Shown: piece by piece, positions 3,097 through 18,036 of the stretch
How positions within the stretch are numbered: the first letter of the stretch is position 1
Layout of the letters: every line of letters begins with the position of its first letter
IMG/VR virus record: IMGVR_UViG_3300027857_000017
Origin: a virus
Direction: 5' to 3' (one strand)
Length of the DNA: 64,000 nt
Notes under the pieces: generated by a model
The model's input: the letters and a program-made list of their open reading frames with translations, nothing else
The model's database searches: none
Told to the model about the DNA's origin: nothing
Program-made: the position numbers and the translations under genes

Positions 3097-3569
3097 ATGG
3101 TGACACCCTCCTCTTGAGGCGTTCCCACAATTCCTGTTTTACTTTTTCGCACTGCATCGGCATAGTTGTACGCCTCCATAAATTTCTCATGGAGTGTATT
3201 TGCCATTTCATAGTTTCCTTCACGCTTTGCCGCATAGCAGGCAGAAAGAGCTTCTTGTTTTACTTTCTCAGCAGCATCAATGCGTTCCTGTCTTTCCTTG
3301 CGTTTCACCTCGCGCTTTTCCTGTTGGATTTGCCTACGTTTCTCTGGGGATGGGGTGTAATGCGGATCATCTTCTGGTAATGAATAGTAAAATGACAGAG
3401 GGGCATCACTACCACCACGTTTTGCACCATGCGCCATGCCTCCACACCGACAATGGCAGGACTCTTCACGAGCCTCCTCACACCTTTTGGCTTGATGCTC
3501 AGTTAACTTTTTCATCATCTCTTCTTTCCTTCTGCCCTTGCGCGTAGAAGTATGAGACAATTTGACCAT
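3093..3569 (-). CDS. basic, coiled-coil, Cys/His-containing hypothetical protein
   Basis: 158 aa; stop overlaps the integrase start by 4 nt (coupled). This is the position usually held by an excisionase or accessory factor, but no HTH is recognisable. Confidence 0.4.
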   Translation of the reverse strand: MVKLSHTSTRKGRRKEEMMKKLTEHQAKRCEEAREESCHCRCGGMAHGAKRGGSDAPLSFYYSLPEDDPHYTPSPEKRRQIQQEKREVKRKERQERIDAAEKVKQEALSACYAAKREGNYEMANTLHEKFMEAYNYADAVRKSKTGIVGTPQEEGVTI

Positions 3570-3768
3570 CTTTCTCCGCTTGCTCTAACCTGGCTACAGT
3601 AAAGCCGAGATATTCAGATGTCAGTTCGGCATGGTAGATCGTGAAAAAGTTGCTAATCTCTCCCGTTTGGAGATGAACATGAGGAAGTTCAGGTATACCG
3701 GCAAGATTATATCTCGTCACAATCTCTAGCGTGTAGGTATTTTGTCGTCCCATTTTTCGCCTTTCCAT
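3499..3768 (-). CDS. hypothetical protein
   Basis: 89-aa ORF; sigma70-like promoter (TTGATT-17-TATACT on the minus strand) about 80 nt upstream. Confidence 0.35.
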   Translation of the reverse strand: MERRKMGRQNTYTLEIVTRYNLAGIPELPHVHLQTGEISNFFTIYHAELTSEYLGFTVARLEQAEKDGQIVSYFYAQGQKERRDDEKVN

Positions 3769-4344: not shown

Positions 4345-4853
4345 GATTCATTCTCCTATTGGAGCCAACGTCAGACGAACACTACAATCACCCTGCCCAT
4401 ACTGGGATTGGTGGTCAATACAATGGACCGTGACCTGAATACTCCCATCAGGTTGTGGCTCAGGTTCACTTGTCTCTTCTTCTCGCATGAGCAGTTCGAG
4501 AATACGCTGCATGAATGCTTGTGGCGTCGTGGGTCCATCAAGATTGGGCATCTGAATGCTCCTCTCCAACCAGATTCTTGGTCCGCTGCCTCAACTCAGT
4601 CCACCGATGCTCAAATGCCGTATACTCACCAGCCACAATGGTTTCGTGATCCTCTGCCAGTCTCTCCCAATCCAGGGCGAGTTGTTGCAACGGCGTGATG
4701 TAGTCTCTGGTGATTAACGACGCCAATCGGGTCACGTCACACCTCATTTTATCGTCCATCTCTTCCCATGTAGTTGCCTCTTCCTTTGATGCAACTACCA
4801 ATGCCAGATCGCTCAATGCTTTGCCTGTTAGTTTCATAGGTGTGTCCTCCTAT

Positions 4854-10678: not shown

Positions 10679-11656
10679 TCATTCCCGCTCCATCCAAGAT
10701 CGCTCACGTATGGAAGGAATATGACCACGATAGGCAAGAACCGCCTCTTCAGCATTGCCGAGCGAGAAATAGCGATCAGGATCGTGGCGAAGCATTTCCA
10801 GAATAGGGCGTTGCTGCGAGACATTTGGCACTGGGGAGAGGTCAAGTAAGGAATACATCTCACAGGATGGAATGGCATGCACCACCAGTTCGGCATAGGC
10901 ATGCAAGAGGGCGATGCGCTCTGGCGTGAAGAATCCTTCACGGATACTCGAAATAGTGAGTGCGCCTCCTATTCCACCACCCTGGATACGCAGAGGCGTT
11001 ACAAAGACACTCATCAAAGGACCTTCAAGAAATAAGGATCTGAGACGCTTATTCACCTGATGTCCCTCGTAGAGCAGGTCACGCTCTCGCAGAACACATT
11101 GACCAGACATGGAGTTGCTGCCAATGAAAATTAACTCCGTCTGCCGTTCCAGGCATTCTACCGTACCAAGAGAGCTGGCATGATAGAGCGTACGAACGCG
11201 TCCATCTTCCCCTGGGGGAGAACACCTCAAAAAAGAGATTAAACACCCTTCAGCGAGTGGGTCCAGGATGTGTCTCATTTGTGTTTGTGCCAGGAAAGAG
11301 ACCGTTTCAAATCGGAGGGCAGGCTCCTGATTGGTGCATGCCTCAACAATGTCCTGATAGTATGCAGAGGGGATATGGTCGTGGGTCAGGGACCGCTGGA
11401 TCTGCTCTGCGATAATCGCGTAGCGTGGTGTCATCTGGCGCAGCCCCTCGATAAACGTGAGGAGTCTCGTTCGAGGCAACACTCGTCCCAGCTCAAGAGC
11501 ATGGTCAGGATGAGGAACACTCTCTCCTCGTATCCATCGCTGGAGCGTGTTTCTCTGAATCCCAAGTTCTCTTAGCAGGGAACTTCGTTCCTCTGTTTCG
11601 AGATTTCTGAGGGCATCATTCCATTTCCTCTCTTCCGAGCGGCGATTGTTGGGCAA
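10679..11656 (-). CDS. transcriptional regulator, XRE-like HTH plus GAF-like sensor domain
   Basis: N-terminal LRELGIQRNTLQRWIRGESVP helix-turn-helix. C-terminal region has GAF-like signatures (VFVTPLRIQGGGIGGALTISS). Confidence 0.55.
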   Translation of the reverse strand: MPNNRRSEERKWNDALRNLETEERSSLLRELGIQRNTLQRWIRGESVPHPDHALELGRVLPRTRLLTFIEGLRQMTPRYAIIAEQIQRSLTHDHIPSAYYQDIVEACTNQEPALRFETVSFLAQTQMRHILDPLAEGCLISFLRCSPPGEDGRVRTLYHASSLGTVECLERQTELIFIGSNSMSGQCVLRERDLLYEGHQVNKRLRSLFLEGPLMSVFVTPLRIQGGGIGGALTISSIREGFFTPERIALLHAYAELVVHAIPSCEMYSLLDLSPVPNVSQQRPILEMLRHDPDRYFSLGNAEEAVLAYRGHIPSIRERSWMERE

Positions 11657-11742: not shown

Positions 11743-12048
11743 CCGTGGTATTATCCCGTGGTACATATATATTACGAATGATTGCGTTCGTGAGACGAGT
11801 GGAAAAACGAGAAAACAGCATGCTGTCATCTCGTTTTTATGTGTACCACGCCTTCTCGCCCTTAAATCTATCAGGGACCAAAGGGTGAGAGAGGAATCGA
11901 AAATTCACACAATGAATAGTTTGGGTACAGAAGCAGTGTACTAAAAAAGATGGCGAACGTCAATGATCTCTTGTTGTCCGTTCTACTACACAAGATGACA
12001 GAGAGTCTATGAGTCCATACACGGGTTCCGACCCCCAGGAGAGCAAAA

Positions 12049-14172: not shown

Positions 14173-14904
14173 ATGAGCCATCTCAGTCAGGTTGTGGCAG
14201 TAGAGAAGGACACAAAGGAAAAAGCATCACAGAGACTCTCTCAAGCAAGAGGCGTCTTCGGCAATCGTGGTCTCTTCACCGGTCTGGCTCGTGCCTATAC
14301 ACCCAAAGATGAAGAAGGTGAGCAACTCCCACCTGAGTCCACACGAGTCCAGTACACTGTTAAGCAGGTGCTCAAAGATGCACAGGAAAGCCTGGTAGCA
14401 CTTTTTGATGTAACAGCTACCAAAGATTATACCAACTGCGTAGCAAAAGCCAACATTGAGGTTGATGGCAATGTCCTGCTCAAGGATGTGCCTGCCACGT
14501 ATATCCTGTTCTTGGAGAAACAACTTGCGGAACTGCTCAACTTCGTAAAGACCATTCCAACCCTGGATATGGCAGAGGAATGGCGCTACGACACCACGCA
14601 GGACGCATGGGCTACTCCACCTGTTGAAACGATCAGGTCCAAGAAGGTGATGCGTAACCATGTAATGGCAGAGGCAACGCCGCATCACCCTGCTCAAGTC
14701 CAGGTGTACGCTGAAGATATCCCTGCTGGTCGCTGGAGGACCGTGAAGTACTCCGGTGCCATGCAAGTCACTGACCACAACGCTATGATTGGGCGTATTG
14801 AGCGACTCCAAAAGGCAGTGAAGCATGCCCGTGAGGACGCCAACCGTCAGGAAGTCCTTCAACAGCATGTGGGTGAGACACTCTTGCACTATATCTTCGG
14901 GTAG
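14173..14904 (+). CDS. hypothetical protein (unknown family) upstream of the Y RNA locus
   Basis: 243-aa ORF preceded by AAGGAG; no recognisable motif. Confidence 0.45.
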   Translation: MSHLSQVVAVEKDTKEKASQRLSQARGVFGNRGLFTGLARAYTPKDEEGEQLPPESTRVQYTVKQVLKDAQESLVALFDVTATKDYTNCVAKANIEVDGNVLLKDVPATYILFLEKQLAELLNFVKTIPTLDMAEEWRYDTTQDAWATPPVETIRSKKVMRNHVMAEATPHHPAQVQVYAEDIPAGRWRTVKYSGAMQVTDHNAMIGRIERLQKAVKHAREDANRQEVLQQHVGETLLHYIFG

Positions 14905-14909
14905 CAACG

Positions 14910-15353
14910 ATGGCGCATGCATACTATCACGCAAAAAGTAGTGCCAGACAGTTTGGAGGGACATATGAAGACTATATGCCCCTCCATCAGTTCATGGACC
15001 ACACAAAAGGACATATCGGTGATAACAGACATCGCCTCTTGCTTCACAACACGTGGGGCATTTTCCTGGTGGAACGGATCTTTGGCGCACTCTGGACACG
15101 CCCCTCTGACGGCAAGCAGATTCCCACACGAACCATTCTAGAGCAGCATGTCCTGGAAGACTTACGATGCATCCCAACATTAGAGCAGTGCTTTGCGCAC
15201 GTCCCAGTGGAACCGTGGCAATTTCGCAAGGCACGATCACTCTCAAAAGAGGAGGAGAACGATGACCACAATGCAGACCCCATTGACCCGACAACAACTG
15301 ACGCAACTAACCCAGGAGTACCAAACACTGGAGGAGTGGACGACCATCCGTGA
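14910..15353 (+). CDS. hypothetical protein
   Basis: 147-aa ORF; the C-terminal tail overlaps the next gene and may be shorter in reality. Confidence 0.35.
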   Translation: MAHAYYHAKSSARQFGGTYEDYMPLHQFMDHTKGHIGDNRHRLLLHNTWGIFLVERIFGALWTRPSDGKQIPTRTILEQHVLEDLRCIPTLEQCFAHVPVEPWQFRKARSLSKEEENDDHNADPIDPTTTDATNPGVPNTGGVDDHP

Positions 15354-15765
15354 TTTTGCAAGCCAGGTCTACGGACCTGAGAGAGCTGCTAAGGTTGAAG
15401 TTGAGACCTATGGCGAGTACAACGATGAGGGCGGGACAAACTACAGTGTCAGCGCCGTAACTGCTTACGATGCTAATGGAGAGGGAATAGAATTTGATCT
15501 GACACTACCGTTCTGGACTCAATCCTATTTTGCAGAGACCTTTCAAGGGAAAACGGATGTTGAAGAGGCACTGGAGGCAGCACTTGATGCACTGAAAGAG
15601 TATTATCCTTACAAACCAGAGGGAAAGGCGCTTCTGGAACAGCAGAGATGGGTCCAATGGGAGGATCTACCCGTAGATGAGCATAACGGTGGTGACAAGA
15701 CCTATGATCTCACCATGCAGCCCTCTATCAGTTTCCCTGTGGTCTTTGCTGGGGTTGCTAGTTGA
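15262..15765 (+). CDS. hypothetical protein
   Basis: strong Shine-Dalgarno GAGGAGGA 6 nt before ATG 15262 (internal start of track ORF 15193-15765). Confidence 0.45.
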   Translation: MTTMQTPLTRQQLTQLTQEYQTLEEWTTIRDFASQVYGPERAAKVEVETYGEYNDEGGTNYSVSAVTAYDANGEGIEFDLTLPFWTQSYFAETFQGKTDVEEALEAALDALKEYYPYKPEGKALLEQQRWVQWEDLPVDEHNGGDKTYDLTMQPSISFPVVFAGVAS

Positions 15766-15790
15766 CAGGACTCCCTGTCCCATGTATCAT
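15762..15790 (+). promoter_or_regulatory. strong sigma70-like promoter for the Y RNA candidate
   Basis: TTGACA (15762-15767), 17-nt spacer, TATCAT (15785-15790). Confidence 0.6.
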
Positions 15791-16073
15791 GGCGACGAAG
15801 CACAGATTGAGTAGTAACTTGAGTCTTAATCATAATTTCAGATTCTTGCTTCAGACTCAGTATGCTTCGTTGCCAAACATGCGGAGAGCAGGCATTTTTC
15901 GCTACTGGTCGCGGGTTCGATCCCCGCTCGCGCATTTCGCTGCGCGATAACTCAGTGGCTAGAGTGGGTAGCTGTAACCGAGATGCATCCAAACCCGCGT
16001 GAATGGATGAGAACGAAACTCTTTTGCTAAGAGAAAAGACAAGCCAGGATAGGGCATTTCCTGGCTTGTCGCC
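15791..16073 (+). ncRNA. Y RNA candidate (YrlA-like) with a circularly permuted tRNA-like domain
   Basis: Element order is T-arm GCGGG-TTCGATC-CCCGC (15911-15927), 3' acceptor strand TCGCGCA, a 6-nt loop, complementary 5' acceptor strand TGCGCGA (15941-15947), U8/A9, then a canonical D-arm ACTC-AGTGGCTA-GAGT (15950-15965). The flanking GCTAC (15901) and GTAGC (15968) pair where the anticodon stem would be. The 5' end GGCGAC pairs with GTCGCC at 16068-16073. It lies convergent to and abutting rsr. Confidence 0.5.
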
Positions 16074-16093
16074 TTATTGAGTGACTATTTCAA

Positions 16094-16177
16094 GGGTGAG
16101 TATCCAAGTGGACAAAGGAAACTGTCTGTAAAACAGCGGGCATCATGCCTTCAGAGGTTCGAATCCTCTCTCACCCA
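16094..16177 (+). tRNA. tRNA-Tyr (anticodon GUA), type II with long variable arm
   Basis: Acceptor GGGTGAG/CTCACCC, TA at positions 8-9, D-arm TCC-AAGTGGACAAA-GGA, anticodon loop CTGTAAA with U33-GUA-A37, variable hairpin GGCAT-C-ATGCC, T-arm AGAGG-TTCGAAT-CCTCT, discriminator A. D-arm and anticodon arm resemble bacterial tRNA-Tyr. Confidence 0.6.
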
Positions 16178-16185
16178 CCCTCTCT

Positions 16186-17805
16186 CTAGAATTCGCCTTT
16201 AATGAAGGAATTCATAAGCAAAGGAGTGACGGTATCTAGTCCTACACAATCCATCGCCCTGCGGTCGTCTGGCGCATTGTTCGTCACATGAGTGGCGGTC
16301 ATCTGCACATTGATGATCTTGGCATTTGGGTTGACCTGAGCACGATACATTTCCAGTAATTGTGCAGGGTGTCCACCGCGCCCGGACCACGTTTCACTAT
16401 CTGTCAGGATCACAAAGGCGTCCACAGGCATTTTGTCGTACAACGCATACCTCATCGGCAGTGACAAATCAGTCCCACCTCCGCCAATTCCCTTAAGCGT
16501 TCTCACTACATCATCCAACCTCTGTGAAGGAGAGATGGTCAACTTCTGCACACCCGTATCTATGCCAATGAGATGGTAGTTCGGCTCAGTTCTCGCCATC
16601 ACCAACGCCATAGCGCCAGCAGCCGTATGCACATCCATACCAGGGATGCCATTGACCTGCCCATAGTGCATCGATCCACTGGTGTCCACTGCCAGCAAGA
16701 TGTGCTTTCCAGTGGGTTCTACTGCTTCAAATGACAGATAGAAGGCATCATTGAGTGCATCGATAATTTCACGTACTGGCTCCCAGGTATGATTCCCTCG
16801 CACGCCTTTCCCGCTGGCATACGTGGTCAATGCCGCAAGGATCTTAATTGGGTGAAGCTTCGCATTGTGAATCCTTTCGCGGTCCCGAAGACGCGACGTA
16901 ATCACTTTTGTCATCTCACCCATTGGCTTGATCACACCCTCCCTGGTCATCGTTGCCAGATTGCGCGTCATTGCCTCAAGCGGCATATCCTCTAGCAATG
17001 CCTCCCAGACCCGTATAGAATGCAAATGCTGAGTAGGAACTGCTTCGCGTGGTAGTTTGTAGGTCTTGATCAGAGAAGCCACTTCACGATCATCCTGAGC
17101 ACGTTTGGCTCGCTCGTATGCCCAGATGATCTTGAGCGCATCATCAGGATGCGGCTCATCACCAACAGACTCCCACCCGCCTTTGACAATCCAGTGATAG
17201 AGGGTGTTATACGTTGAAGTCTCTGCCTTTGGATGTGCCAGGCGGAGCAGATCGCGCTGACTGTAGCCATCCCTCTGCTGATACTTGAGCACCTGATACG
17301 CCAGATTGTGTTCTTTCCTATCATTGAACCAGGAGGCAACGGCACGACGATAGGCACGTCCCCAGCCTCTAAACTGTTTGGCATAGGCGACGAAGTGCAG
17401 GAGGTGCGTGCCGGTCCTGGCTACTTGTGGCAACACAGAGAGCGCATACTGGCGAATCTTCTCATCATCGGCAGCAGCACACCTTGCCAGCGCAAACAGA
17501 GCAGGGTCGTTGGAAGCAGCTCGTCCAGCCTTTGACACTTCTACGATGGAGGTCACTATATCACGCCCATTGCCCTCTTTAAGCATACGCTCCACGGTCT
17601 CTAAATTTTGTTTGGTCAATTCACGCTGCCCGACATAGAGTGTGTTGCTATTGCTCCCCAATATTAAGAACCTTAAGAGGCGCGTAGGATCATCAACAGA
17701 CCAACTAAACCCACCAGCGTTATTGAGAACTTGACTTGACCCAGGAATAGGCTCGGTTTGTGGCGTCTGCTGTGAAAAACGTCCAAAGTTGAGATAGTTC
17801 TTCAT
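16186..17805 (-). CDS. rsr: Ro60 ortholog Rsr (TROVE domain + von Willebrand A domain)
   Basis: About 540 aa; TROVE-like N-terminal region and C-terminal vWA with the MIDAS motif LLAVDTSGSM. Start taken at MKNYLNF (17805), which follows a GGAGGAAGGGGG Shine-Dalgarno. The track ORF extends to 17826. Confidence 0.8.
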   Translation of the reverse strand: MKNYLNFGRFSQQTPQTEPIPGSSQVLNNAGGFSWSVDDPTRLLRFLILGSNSNTLYVGQRELTKQNLETVERMLKEGNGRDIVTSIVEVSKAGRAASNDPALFALARCAAADDEKIRQYALSVLPQVARTGTHLLHFVAYAKQFRGWGRAYRRAVASWFNDRKEHNLAYQVLKYQQRDGYSQRDLLRLAHPKAETSTYNTLYHWIVKGGWESVGDEPHPDDALKIIWAYERAKRAQDDREVASLIKTYKLPREAVPTQHLHSIRVWEALLEDMPLEAMTRNLATMTREGVIKPMGEMTKVITSRLRDRERIHNAKLHPIKILAALTTYASGKGVRGNHTWEPVREIIDALNDAFYLSFEAVEPTGKHILLAVDTSGSMHYGQVNGIPGMDVHTAAGAMALVMARTEPNYHLIGIDTGVQKLTISPSQRLDDVVRTLKGIGGGGTDLSLPMRYALYDKMPVDAFVILTDSETWSGRGGHPAQLLEMYRAQVNPNAKIINVQMTATHVTNNAPDDRRAMDCVGLDTVTPLLMNSFIKGEF

Positions 17806-18036
17806 CGTCCCCCTTCCTCCACTCATAAAATGACACGGGCGAGAAAACGCTCATAGGTACCAAAAGCAGCGATAACCTACGAACTGCGGCCCGTGTCGAT
17901 AAGTCCTGTACTGAGCAAGTGAACTGGGGCGGGAATGTCAGCGATCCCAAAAGAAGCTAATAACCCGCCCATCTCGGCTCAGTACCATGATTGCGTGTCC
18001 TGGATAAAAAGCGATACTGGGTATCTTAAAGTCAAT

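Follow-up and report, generated by a model that had tools for sequence, protein, structure and literature searches.

What does an RNA shaped like a rearranged tRNA do beside a gene for a Ro60 protein? The question is raised by IMG/VR virus record IMGVR_UViG_3300027857_000017, of which we analysed a stretch of 64,000 nucleotides (nt; hereafter the window). On its plus strand, a promoter and a tRNA-like domain of permuted order precede a tRNA-Tyr, and convergent with that tRNA lies rsr, which encodes a Ro60 orthologue. The original prediction, made from sequence alone, was that this RNA is the Y RNA partner of rsr. We find that it is probably not: rsr has five Y RNA genes of its own, and full-length homologues of the candidate follow a gene of a different family, DUF7873, without rsr. 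We put the probability at roughly 0.75 that the candidate belongs to a conserved phage RNA family that carries one or two permuted tRNA-like domains on stacked helices and lies downstream of DUF7873 on the same strand, rather than being a Y RNA of the adjacent rsr. Most likely, it is a phage tRNA-mimic RNA that works with DUF7873.

Every sequence element on which the original prediction was built is present. A sigma-70-type promoter (15762–15790, plus strand) that agrees with 11 of 12 consensus positions consists of TTGACA (15762–15767), a 17-nt spacer and TATCAT (15785–15790). Further along the same strand, the permuted core (15907–15966) runs from a variable loop (GGUC) through the T arm (15911–15927; GCGGG-TTCGATC-CCCGC), a closed 7-bp acceptor hairpin (15928–15947; 3′ strand TCGCGCA at 15928–15934, 6-nt loop TTTCGC, 5′ strand TGCGCGA at 15941–15947), U8 and A9 (TA, 15948–15949) and the D arm (15950–15965; ACTC-AGTGGCTA-GAGT) to G26, with all 16 of its 16 pairs formed. 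A strict scan for this order (T arm 5/5, acceptor 7/7, D stem 4/4) returned two perfect modules in the window and an average of 0.0 in 200 Markov resamples, so the tRNA-like elements far exceed chance. A megablast search of phages gave no relatives, and the exact DNA pattern of the module was absent from viral contigs.

The core is carried on stacked helices (15878–16001, plus strand), namely P2 (15878–15884 with 15995–16001), P3 (15892–15898 with 15980–15986) and P4 (15902–15906 with 15967–15971), the last being the equivalent of the anticodon stem. The flanks GCTAC and GTAGC, proposed earlier to close the domain, can indeed pair, but homologues favour the register CUACU (15902–15906) with GGUAG (15967–15971). 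P2 and P3 are reproduced by the minimum-energy fold. Compensatory changes occur in P3 and P4 across six homologues, and covariation of the equivalent outer helix is seen among 38 distant relatives in the family; as judged from aligned sequences, covariation thus shows the predicted helices P2–P4. Upstream lies a 5′ hairpin domain (15797–15875, plus strand; fold z-score −5.8) with the conserved motifs AGCACAGA and CAGAUUCUUGCUUC, in which helix H1 pairs GAAGCA (15797–15802) with UGCUUC (15847–15852). The two H1 strands are spaced by exactly 50 nt in 6/6 homologues, with A-U, G-C and U-A pair types represented, and H1 begins 6–7 nt past the −10 box in 6/6 members of the candidate's subclade. The promoter proposed originally for an RNA of about 280 nt is confirmed, and this constant spacing would place the start near 15797 and not at 15791. 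H1 has two copies of its 3′ strand, spaced by 16 nt, both in the window (15847–15852 and 15863–15868) and in locus L253 (3852 and 3868), which permits two alternative 5′ hairpins in each.

At its 3′ end, the RNA has a small hairpin, CUCUU-UUGCU-AAGAG (16019–16033, plus strand), which sits where relatives embed a tRNA and is conserved in L253 as CUCUUUUGUUAAGAG. It is followed by a terminator-like hairpin (16038–16079, plus strand) with a 12-bp stem (16038–16070), the loop AUAGGGCAU and then GCCUUAUUG; this hairpin, too, appears in the minimum-energy fold, and five relatives have homologous hairpins with a related loop and U tracts after them. The loops read AUGGGCAUUU in L341 and L342, AUGGGCAUC in L252, AUGGGUAUUUU in L262, UUAGGGUAAAG in L253 and AUAGGGCAU in the window (16050–16058), a relatedness that a simple intrinsic terminator would not normally show. 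The six nucleotides GGCGAC (15791–15796), which separate the −10 box from the predicted start, are complementary to GUUGCC (15869–15874) and to GUCGCC (16068–16073). Complementarity of this type is also seen in L341 and L342, and in L253 with compensatory changes (GGGAAC/GUUCUC); it is unexplained if transcription begins at 15797. A stem joining the ends of the whole RNA (GGCGAC with GUCGCC) was considered and dropped as incompatible with the promoter geometry.

The relatives of the whole RNA point away from rsr. With the window RNA as the nhmmer query against about 340 loci, including 251 rsr loci, full-length matches of up to 261 nt were obtained to DUF7873-downstream RNAs only (L253, E = 2e-12; L342, 3e-12; L252, 1e-9; L341, 1.5e-8), and none of the 251 rsr loci matched. 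The 5′ part searched alone likewise matched DUF7873-linked RNAs only (E = 1.5e-5 to 8e-3). Homology extends beyond the tRNA-like core to the 5′ hairpin, P2–P4 and the terminator hairpin (alignment A7). The six members of the subclade have in common the −10 box, H1, P3, P4, the T, D and acceptor stems, a small hairpin or embedded tRNA, and the terminator hairpin, with compensatory changes in H1, P3, P4, T, acceptor and D. The loop that follows P4 varies among them (CUGUAAC, CCGUAAC, CGUCAGC, UAUGAGA, CAUGAGC and CACAAGC); a reading of CUGUAAC as a Tyr anticodon loop was dropped because GUAAC is kept only in the window and L253. On viral contigs with DUF7873 homologues, rsr is absent from the 4-kb flanks; one further locus, L104, has both genes. 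The candidate itself lies downstream of a DUF7873 gene (14173–14904, plus strand; 243 amino acids; Pfam PF25283, E = 6.5e-98), on the same strand, at a gap of about 890 nt versus 40–411 nt elsewhere. That it belongs to the DUF7873-linked RNA family is, in our judgement, very likely.

This family is large and is tied closely to DUF7873. A set of 71 non-redundant viral loci with DUF7873 included 65 in which the gene is followed, on its own strand and within 700 nt, by one or more tRNA-like modules (median 104 nt); exactly two modules are found in 40 of the 71, and three modules in three more. A covariance model built from 17 YrlAs (Y RNA-like A RNAs) of this rsr clade (alignment A2, model R1) matches 62 of 80 DUF7873 loci, and all 93 of its 93 matches are on the strand of the gene. 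In the two-module form, a 5′ hairpin motif (GAGCACAAGCUGAA ... CAGAUUCUCGCUCC) bears module 1 at its tip and is followed by AUCGA, an 8–9-bp outer helix, a closing stem and module 2, with UUAAACG after the 3′ strand of the outer helix. An alignment of 38 distant members (A6) has 95.5% of its cells paired, versus 58.9% in shuffles and about 45% when partners were slid; double compensatory changes occur in 24 of 25 pairs, including 9/9 in the outer helix, and the covariation score is 0.97 against 0.24 for shuffled and 0.19 for slid alignments. In around half of the modules, N-CCA directly follows the 3′ strand of the acceptor (1.6% expected by chance), mostly as ACCA for module 1 and as UCCA for module 2; in the window copy, UUUCGC takes its place. 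Genuine tRNA genes lie within 2 kb of 37 of the 71 loci, and 116 of these 116 tRNAs share the strand of the cassette. Apart from DUF7873, no conserved gene was found within about 2.5 kb in 69 loci. Rfam gave only sub-threshold YrlA matches (28–45 bits) over the family RNAs, on module 2. What is established, then, is that the RNA is conserved and covarying and has a canonical tRNA-like core, that it is strictly linked to DUF7873, and that genuine tRNAs and encoded N-CCA are frequent.

The family is also present in cultured phages, where it can be set against the distribution of rsr. In GenBank, DUF7873 is encoded in 75 phage records, each time under the label of hypothetical protein; by phage name these are Vibrio (29), Gordonia (12), Rhizobium (12), Klebsiella (7), Serratia (6), Arthrobacter (3), Pseudanabaena (2), Ralstonia (2), Rhodococcus (1) and Microcoleus (1). 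We found rsr in 356 phage records, named mainly for Mycobacterium (212), Streptomyces (115), Gordonia (11) and Microbacterium (10), with few others; among these 356, one is named for Vibrio and none for Klebsiella, Serratia, Rhizobium, Arthrobacter, Pseudanabaena or Ralstonia. These names indicate that most DUF7873 phages have no phage-encoded rsr; a host-encoded Rsr may be available to them. In six cultured phages, the 300–700 nt that follow DUF7873 downstream carry no RNA annotation and only occasional small hypothetical open reading frames. A second model, R2, made from distant DUF7873-linked family members, finds the RNA in all six: Arthrobacter phage Mimi (108 bits), Rhizobium phage RHph_Y65 (54 bits), Pseudanabaena phage PA-SR01 (53 bits), Klebsiella phage KpLz-2_45 (44 bits) and Vibrio phage D497 (32 bits), all independent of the model, and Gordonia phage GodonK (100 bits), whose own RNA is in the R2 training set. 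In GodonK (L343; NC_048176), an annotated 42-amino-acid hypothetical protein (3503–3631) overlaps the tRNA-like RNA on the opposite strand and is probably a mis-annotation. Altogether, the family was found in phages of Actinobacteria, Chloroflexota, Cyanobacteria and Proteobacteria.

The identity of the neighbouring gene had been read correctly. rsr (16186–17826, minus strand) encodes TROVE (E = 5e-38) and vWA_Ro60 (E = 3e-42) domains, is convergent with tRNA-Tyr and has its stop codon 7 nt from the end of the tRNA. On its own strand it is preceded by five tandem Y RNA genes (18404–17832), with a near-consensus promoter upstream (18439–18412; TTGACA, 16 nt, TATACT): three YrlA-type genes (18404–18281, 18269–18147 and 18131–17997) and two short genes that lack the tRNA-like domain (17985–17908 and 17897–17832). 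The last of these also matches the model of nematode stem-bulge (Y-like) RNAs (RF01656, 34.1 bits). YrlAs (Rfam RF02553) are bacterial and phage Y RNAs that are bound by Rsr/Ro60 (PMC4201824; doi 10.1101/312249), and published examples are nearly always on the rsr strand (PMC4201824). Close relatives of this rsr have the same arrangement, with YrlAs upstream and on the same strand; the closest are about 70–77% identical and come from Ktedonobacteria-like sources, many on contigs classed as viral. Exact-peptide searches of genomes for relatives of this rsr gave no matches. The 17 YrlAs of alignment A2 share a 9-bp terminal helix of 5′ NNNNNGGGCCG with 3′ CUUUUGCCNNNNN that covaries at all 9 pairs and is the canonical Ro60-binding site described previously (PMC4201824; doi 10.1101/312249). 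R1 gives the three minus-strand YrlAs 83–88 bits, all three being in its training set.

Several further features of rsr loci were seen. Across loci L001–L251, rsr often stands inside arrays of same-strand tRNAs, which number 389 upstream and 149 downstream, against 8 on the other strand. In the YrlAs of L081–L084, the hairpin situated between T arm and Ro-binding stem has a 7-nt anticodon-like loop, reading CUGAAAA (L084, around 4800–4815), CUGUUAA (L082, around 4565–4580), CUUUGGA (L081, around 4415–4430) and CUUGUAA (L083, around 4645–4660), such that YrlAs of this clade with these loops resemble complete permuted tRNAs. The L081 contig, which is phage-like, also has a group I intron match at 11117–11300 (44 bits; gathering score 50) and carries RlaP and a CCA-adding enzyme gene beside rsr.

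Could the candidate nonetheless be a sixth, divergent YrlA-type Y RNA that binds Rsr in a non-canonical way and obtains its 3′ end through RNase P cleavage at tRNA-Tyr, as first proposed? Its core has the T arm, acceptor and D arm in YrlA order together with the tertiary nucleotides; it lies within 4 kb of rsr; Rfam YrlA matches it at 15889–15992 (32.4 bits, E = 5.5e-5); and in L104 the two cassettes also adjoin, with DUF7873, a two-module RNA, tRNA-Met, three Y RNAs with Ro helices and rsr in series on one strand. The Rfam score falls below the gathering score of 69, a weak test given that Rfam YrlA misses all three true YrlAs on the minus strand as well. The candidate also differs from those YrlAs: the proposed architecture holds for the core and fails for the Ro60-binding stem, because the RNA has no stem formed by its ends. 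A search for the 9-bp terminal helix around the candidate found none, the Ro60 site of the clade (GGGCCG with CUUUUGCC) is absent, and R1 aligns the candidate locally only, over model positions 46–100 (T arm, acceptor hairpin and D arm; 30.4 bits). The heptamer GACGAAG (15794–15800) fits the published Ro60-binding motif GNCGAAN0-1G (PMC4201824) to the letter, but L341 and L342 read GACGGAG there, and the heptamer sits at or ahead of the start predicted for the RNA; it was rejected as a Ro site. The candidate is, moreover, on the strand opposite to rsr: a strict scan of 165 rsr loci found 44 modules upstream on the same strand and one convincing module downstream on the opposite strand, which is the candidate itself. 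Homologues also occur in phage groups for which there is no rsr record. Because a Ro60-binding site is not recognisable, the candidate is probably not a Y RNA that belongs to the adjacent rsr; we regard binding to Rsr as unlikely, and a sixth Y RNA as improbable.

Two other explanations fare worse. If the RNA acted only in cis, as a 3′ element belonging to the DUF7873 mRNA or to a tRNA operon, its tRNA-like folds would be nothing but processing or stabilising signals for RNase P or RNase Z. Family RNAs always lie just 3′ of DUF7873 on the same strand, a sigma-70 promoter is recognisable at the junction of gene and RNA in only 9 of 71 loci, and the cassettes often stand within same-strand tRNA arrays, all of which suits such an element. 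The window RNA, however, is detached from DUF7873 by two open reading frames and has a near-consensus promoter of its own, and the scaffold beyond the cores (motifs of the 5′ hairpin, an outer helix set between AUCGA and UUAAACG, and terminator loops that are related to one another) is conserved and covarying to an extent that exceeds the needs of a processing signal, which makes a purely cis-acting role quite improbable. We consider it very improbable indeed that the locus is a decayed tRNA, the remnant of an attachment (att) site or a genuine permuted tRNA-Tyr gene whose halves are joined again to give a functional tRNA. The 3′-half-then-5′-half order, the resemblance of the post-P4 loop to a Tyr anticodon loop and a 19-nt copy of the tRNA-Tyr 3′ end at 11883–11901 (minus strand) would fit such an origin; against it, distant phages keep the structure with compensatory changes, the post-P4 loop is not conserved among homologues, the 19-nt copy is inverted rather than a direct repeat, and ARAGORN finds neither a permuted tRNA nor a transfer-messenger RNA (tmRNA). 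Decay into an att remnant, which the original prediction had itself named as its possible undoing, is therefore not what the locus shows.

Some observations weigh against the DUF7873 explanation preferred here. It is not adjacent to DUF7873, from which the roughly 890 nt and two open reading frames separate it. R2 gives the candidate 33.2 bits (positions 18–118), the same as a minus-strand YrlA core (33.2 bits), and R1 and R2 cannot separate YrlA cores from DUF7873-linked cores; only the flanks do. The DUF7873 and rsr cassettes are neighbours both in the window and in L104, so that the neighbourhood recurs, and the candidate may have a functional link to Rsr; because both cassettes favour phage tRNA regions, the adjacency may simply reflect that shared preference. 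The DUF7873 protein is near neutral (median isoelectric point 6.4), and comparison of its AlphaFold2 model gave no significant fold match and no recognisable RNA-binding fold. The transcript, its processing and its binding by protein are predictions only.

DUF7873 itself offers few clues. Its AlphaFold2 model, a confident one (predicted local distance difference test score 89), consists of long helices and a long beta-hairpin sheet; comparisons with PHROGs, PADLOC, NCBIfam and PDB sequences gave no matches; and its more than 2,300 homologues are all unnamed. Literature searches yielded no account of DUF7873, nor of any YrlA-like RNA associated with a protein other than Ro60, and the DUF7873 RNA family is apparently undescribed and widespread in phages.

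The tRNA that follows the candidate is canonical, as had been claimed: tRNA-Tyr(GUA) (16094–16179, plus strand) is found by ARAGORN and by Rfam tRNA (52.8 bits; threshold 29) and is the only tRNA gene in the window. It belongs to the unit as proposed, yet does not follow the tRNA-like module immediately, as about 128 nt intervene, including the terminator-like hairpin (16038–16070). It sits right after this hairpin with no space for a promoter of its own and is therefore probably made by read-through of the hairpin. That the tRNA is part of the same unit as the candidate RNA is supported, and related cassettes, except that of L253, each contain a single embedded tRNA, whose identity differs among them (Lys, Ile, Met, and two with unusual 8-nt loops). 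The two with 8-nt anticodon loops, in L341 (4968–5043) and L262 (3471–3545), are labelled tRNA-??? by ARAGORN. The 19-nt inverted copy of the tRNA-Tyr 3′ end, about 4.2 kb away and with one mismatch, could be a scar of recombination or integration. The two open reading frames between DUF7873 and the RNA (14910–15765), seen in this lineage only, encode a DUF6915 protein (PHROG 8143) and a 167-amino-acid protein for which no relatives were found among viral sequences. Genes elsewhere in the window include those for an integrase, a DnaB-like helicase, and HNH, ParA-like and tail-like proteins, and the closest relatives of its rsr occur on contigs classed as viral; the mobile-element setting that had been suggested is plausible.

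How might such an RNA work? After transcription from its own promoter, the RNA would fold into the 5′ hairpin domain and the P2–P4 helices, which would display an L-shaped tRNA mimic; the L shape is suggested by the canonical positions of U8, A14, G18-G19, the T-loop and G15:C48. Most transcripts would stop at the hairpin at 16038–16070, and read-through would yield a pre-tRNA-Tyr from which RNase P would release the tRNA. In the YrlA of Mycobacterium smegmatis, RNase P cuts the 7-bp acceptor, and CCA addition has also been shown; by analogy, RNase P may also nick the acceptor hairpin of the candidate at 15940/15941, and tRNA-processing enzymes (RNase P, CCA addition) would recognise the RNA. 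The strict linkage of gene and RNA suggests that the RNA works with the DUF7873 protein, probably as a ribonucleoprotein, although for the candidate itself we judge the chances of this to be about even. Speculatively, the complex would engage, or act as a decoy for, a factor that recognises the tRNA elbow or acceptor. A fuller proposal, which we consider less likely than not, is that DUF7873 and its RNA form an undescribed, widespread phage ribonucleoprotein, made of a protein of novel fold and one or two processed, CCA-ended mimics, that could serve as a decoy or adaptor for host factors that recognise tRNA; these could include anticodon nucleases, RNase P, CCA-adding or modification enzymes and users of aminoacyl-tRNA.

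Comparison with known systems places the RNA closest to YrlA in its core and apart from it elsewhere. Like YrlA, it has the T arm, a closed acceptor stem-loop and the D arm in permuted order on a helix that replaces the anticodon stem, with the tertiary nucleotides present; it occurs in phages near tRNA genes, and its 7-bp acceptor could be a substrate of RNase P, as in M. smegmatis. Unlike YrlA, the candidate and its family lack an end-formed terminal stem and the Ro60-binding motif, are linked to DUF7873 rather than rsr, and have a 5′ hairpin domain (often with a second module inside), AUCGA and UUAAACG flanking the outer helix, a terminator of their own and frequent N-CCA. Two-piece tmRNA has the same gene order of T arm, acceptor 3′ strand, CCA, spacer and acceptor 5′ strand, and a gene for a dedicated small protein partner (SmpB); by contrast, the candidate has a real D arm with G18-G19 and C3:G70 in place of G3:U70, and it lacks a frame that encodes a tag; ARAGORN predicts no tmRNA, and the match to Rfam tmRNA is confined to the T arm. 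The permuted tRNA genes of red algae and archaea also encode the 3′ half ahead of the 5′ half, a linker bridging the acceptor ends, whereas the candidate has no conserved anticodon loop to rejoin, and its ends run on into an extensive conserved scaffold; at the candidate, a bulge-helix-bulge motif was not identified, no search having been aimed at one. Membership of the tmRNAs or the permuted tRNAs was rejected, as the defining features (G3:U70 with a tag frame, and an anticodon loop, respectively) are missing.

To our knowledge, it is the association with Ro60 that has defined YrlA-type mimics until now, and the reader of their tRNA-like domain is still sought. Here, the same permuted tRNA mimic appears on a different, strongly covarying scaffold and is coupled to a different protein family, and DUF7873 might be the kind of effector that reads the T/D elbow of YrlA-type mimics. 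It follows that a tRNA-like module beside rsr is not automatically a Y RNA. With members in cultured phages of Arthrobacter, Gordonia, Klebsiella, Vibrio and Rhizobium, the family provides an experimentally tractable pair of protein and RNA through which the role of tRNA mimics in phages can be approached.

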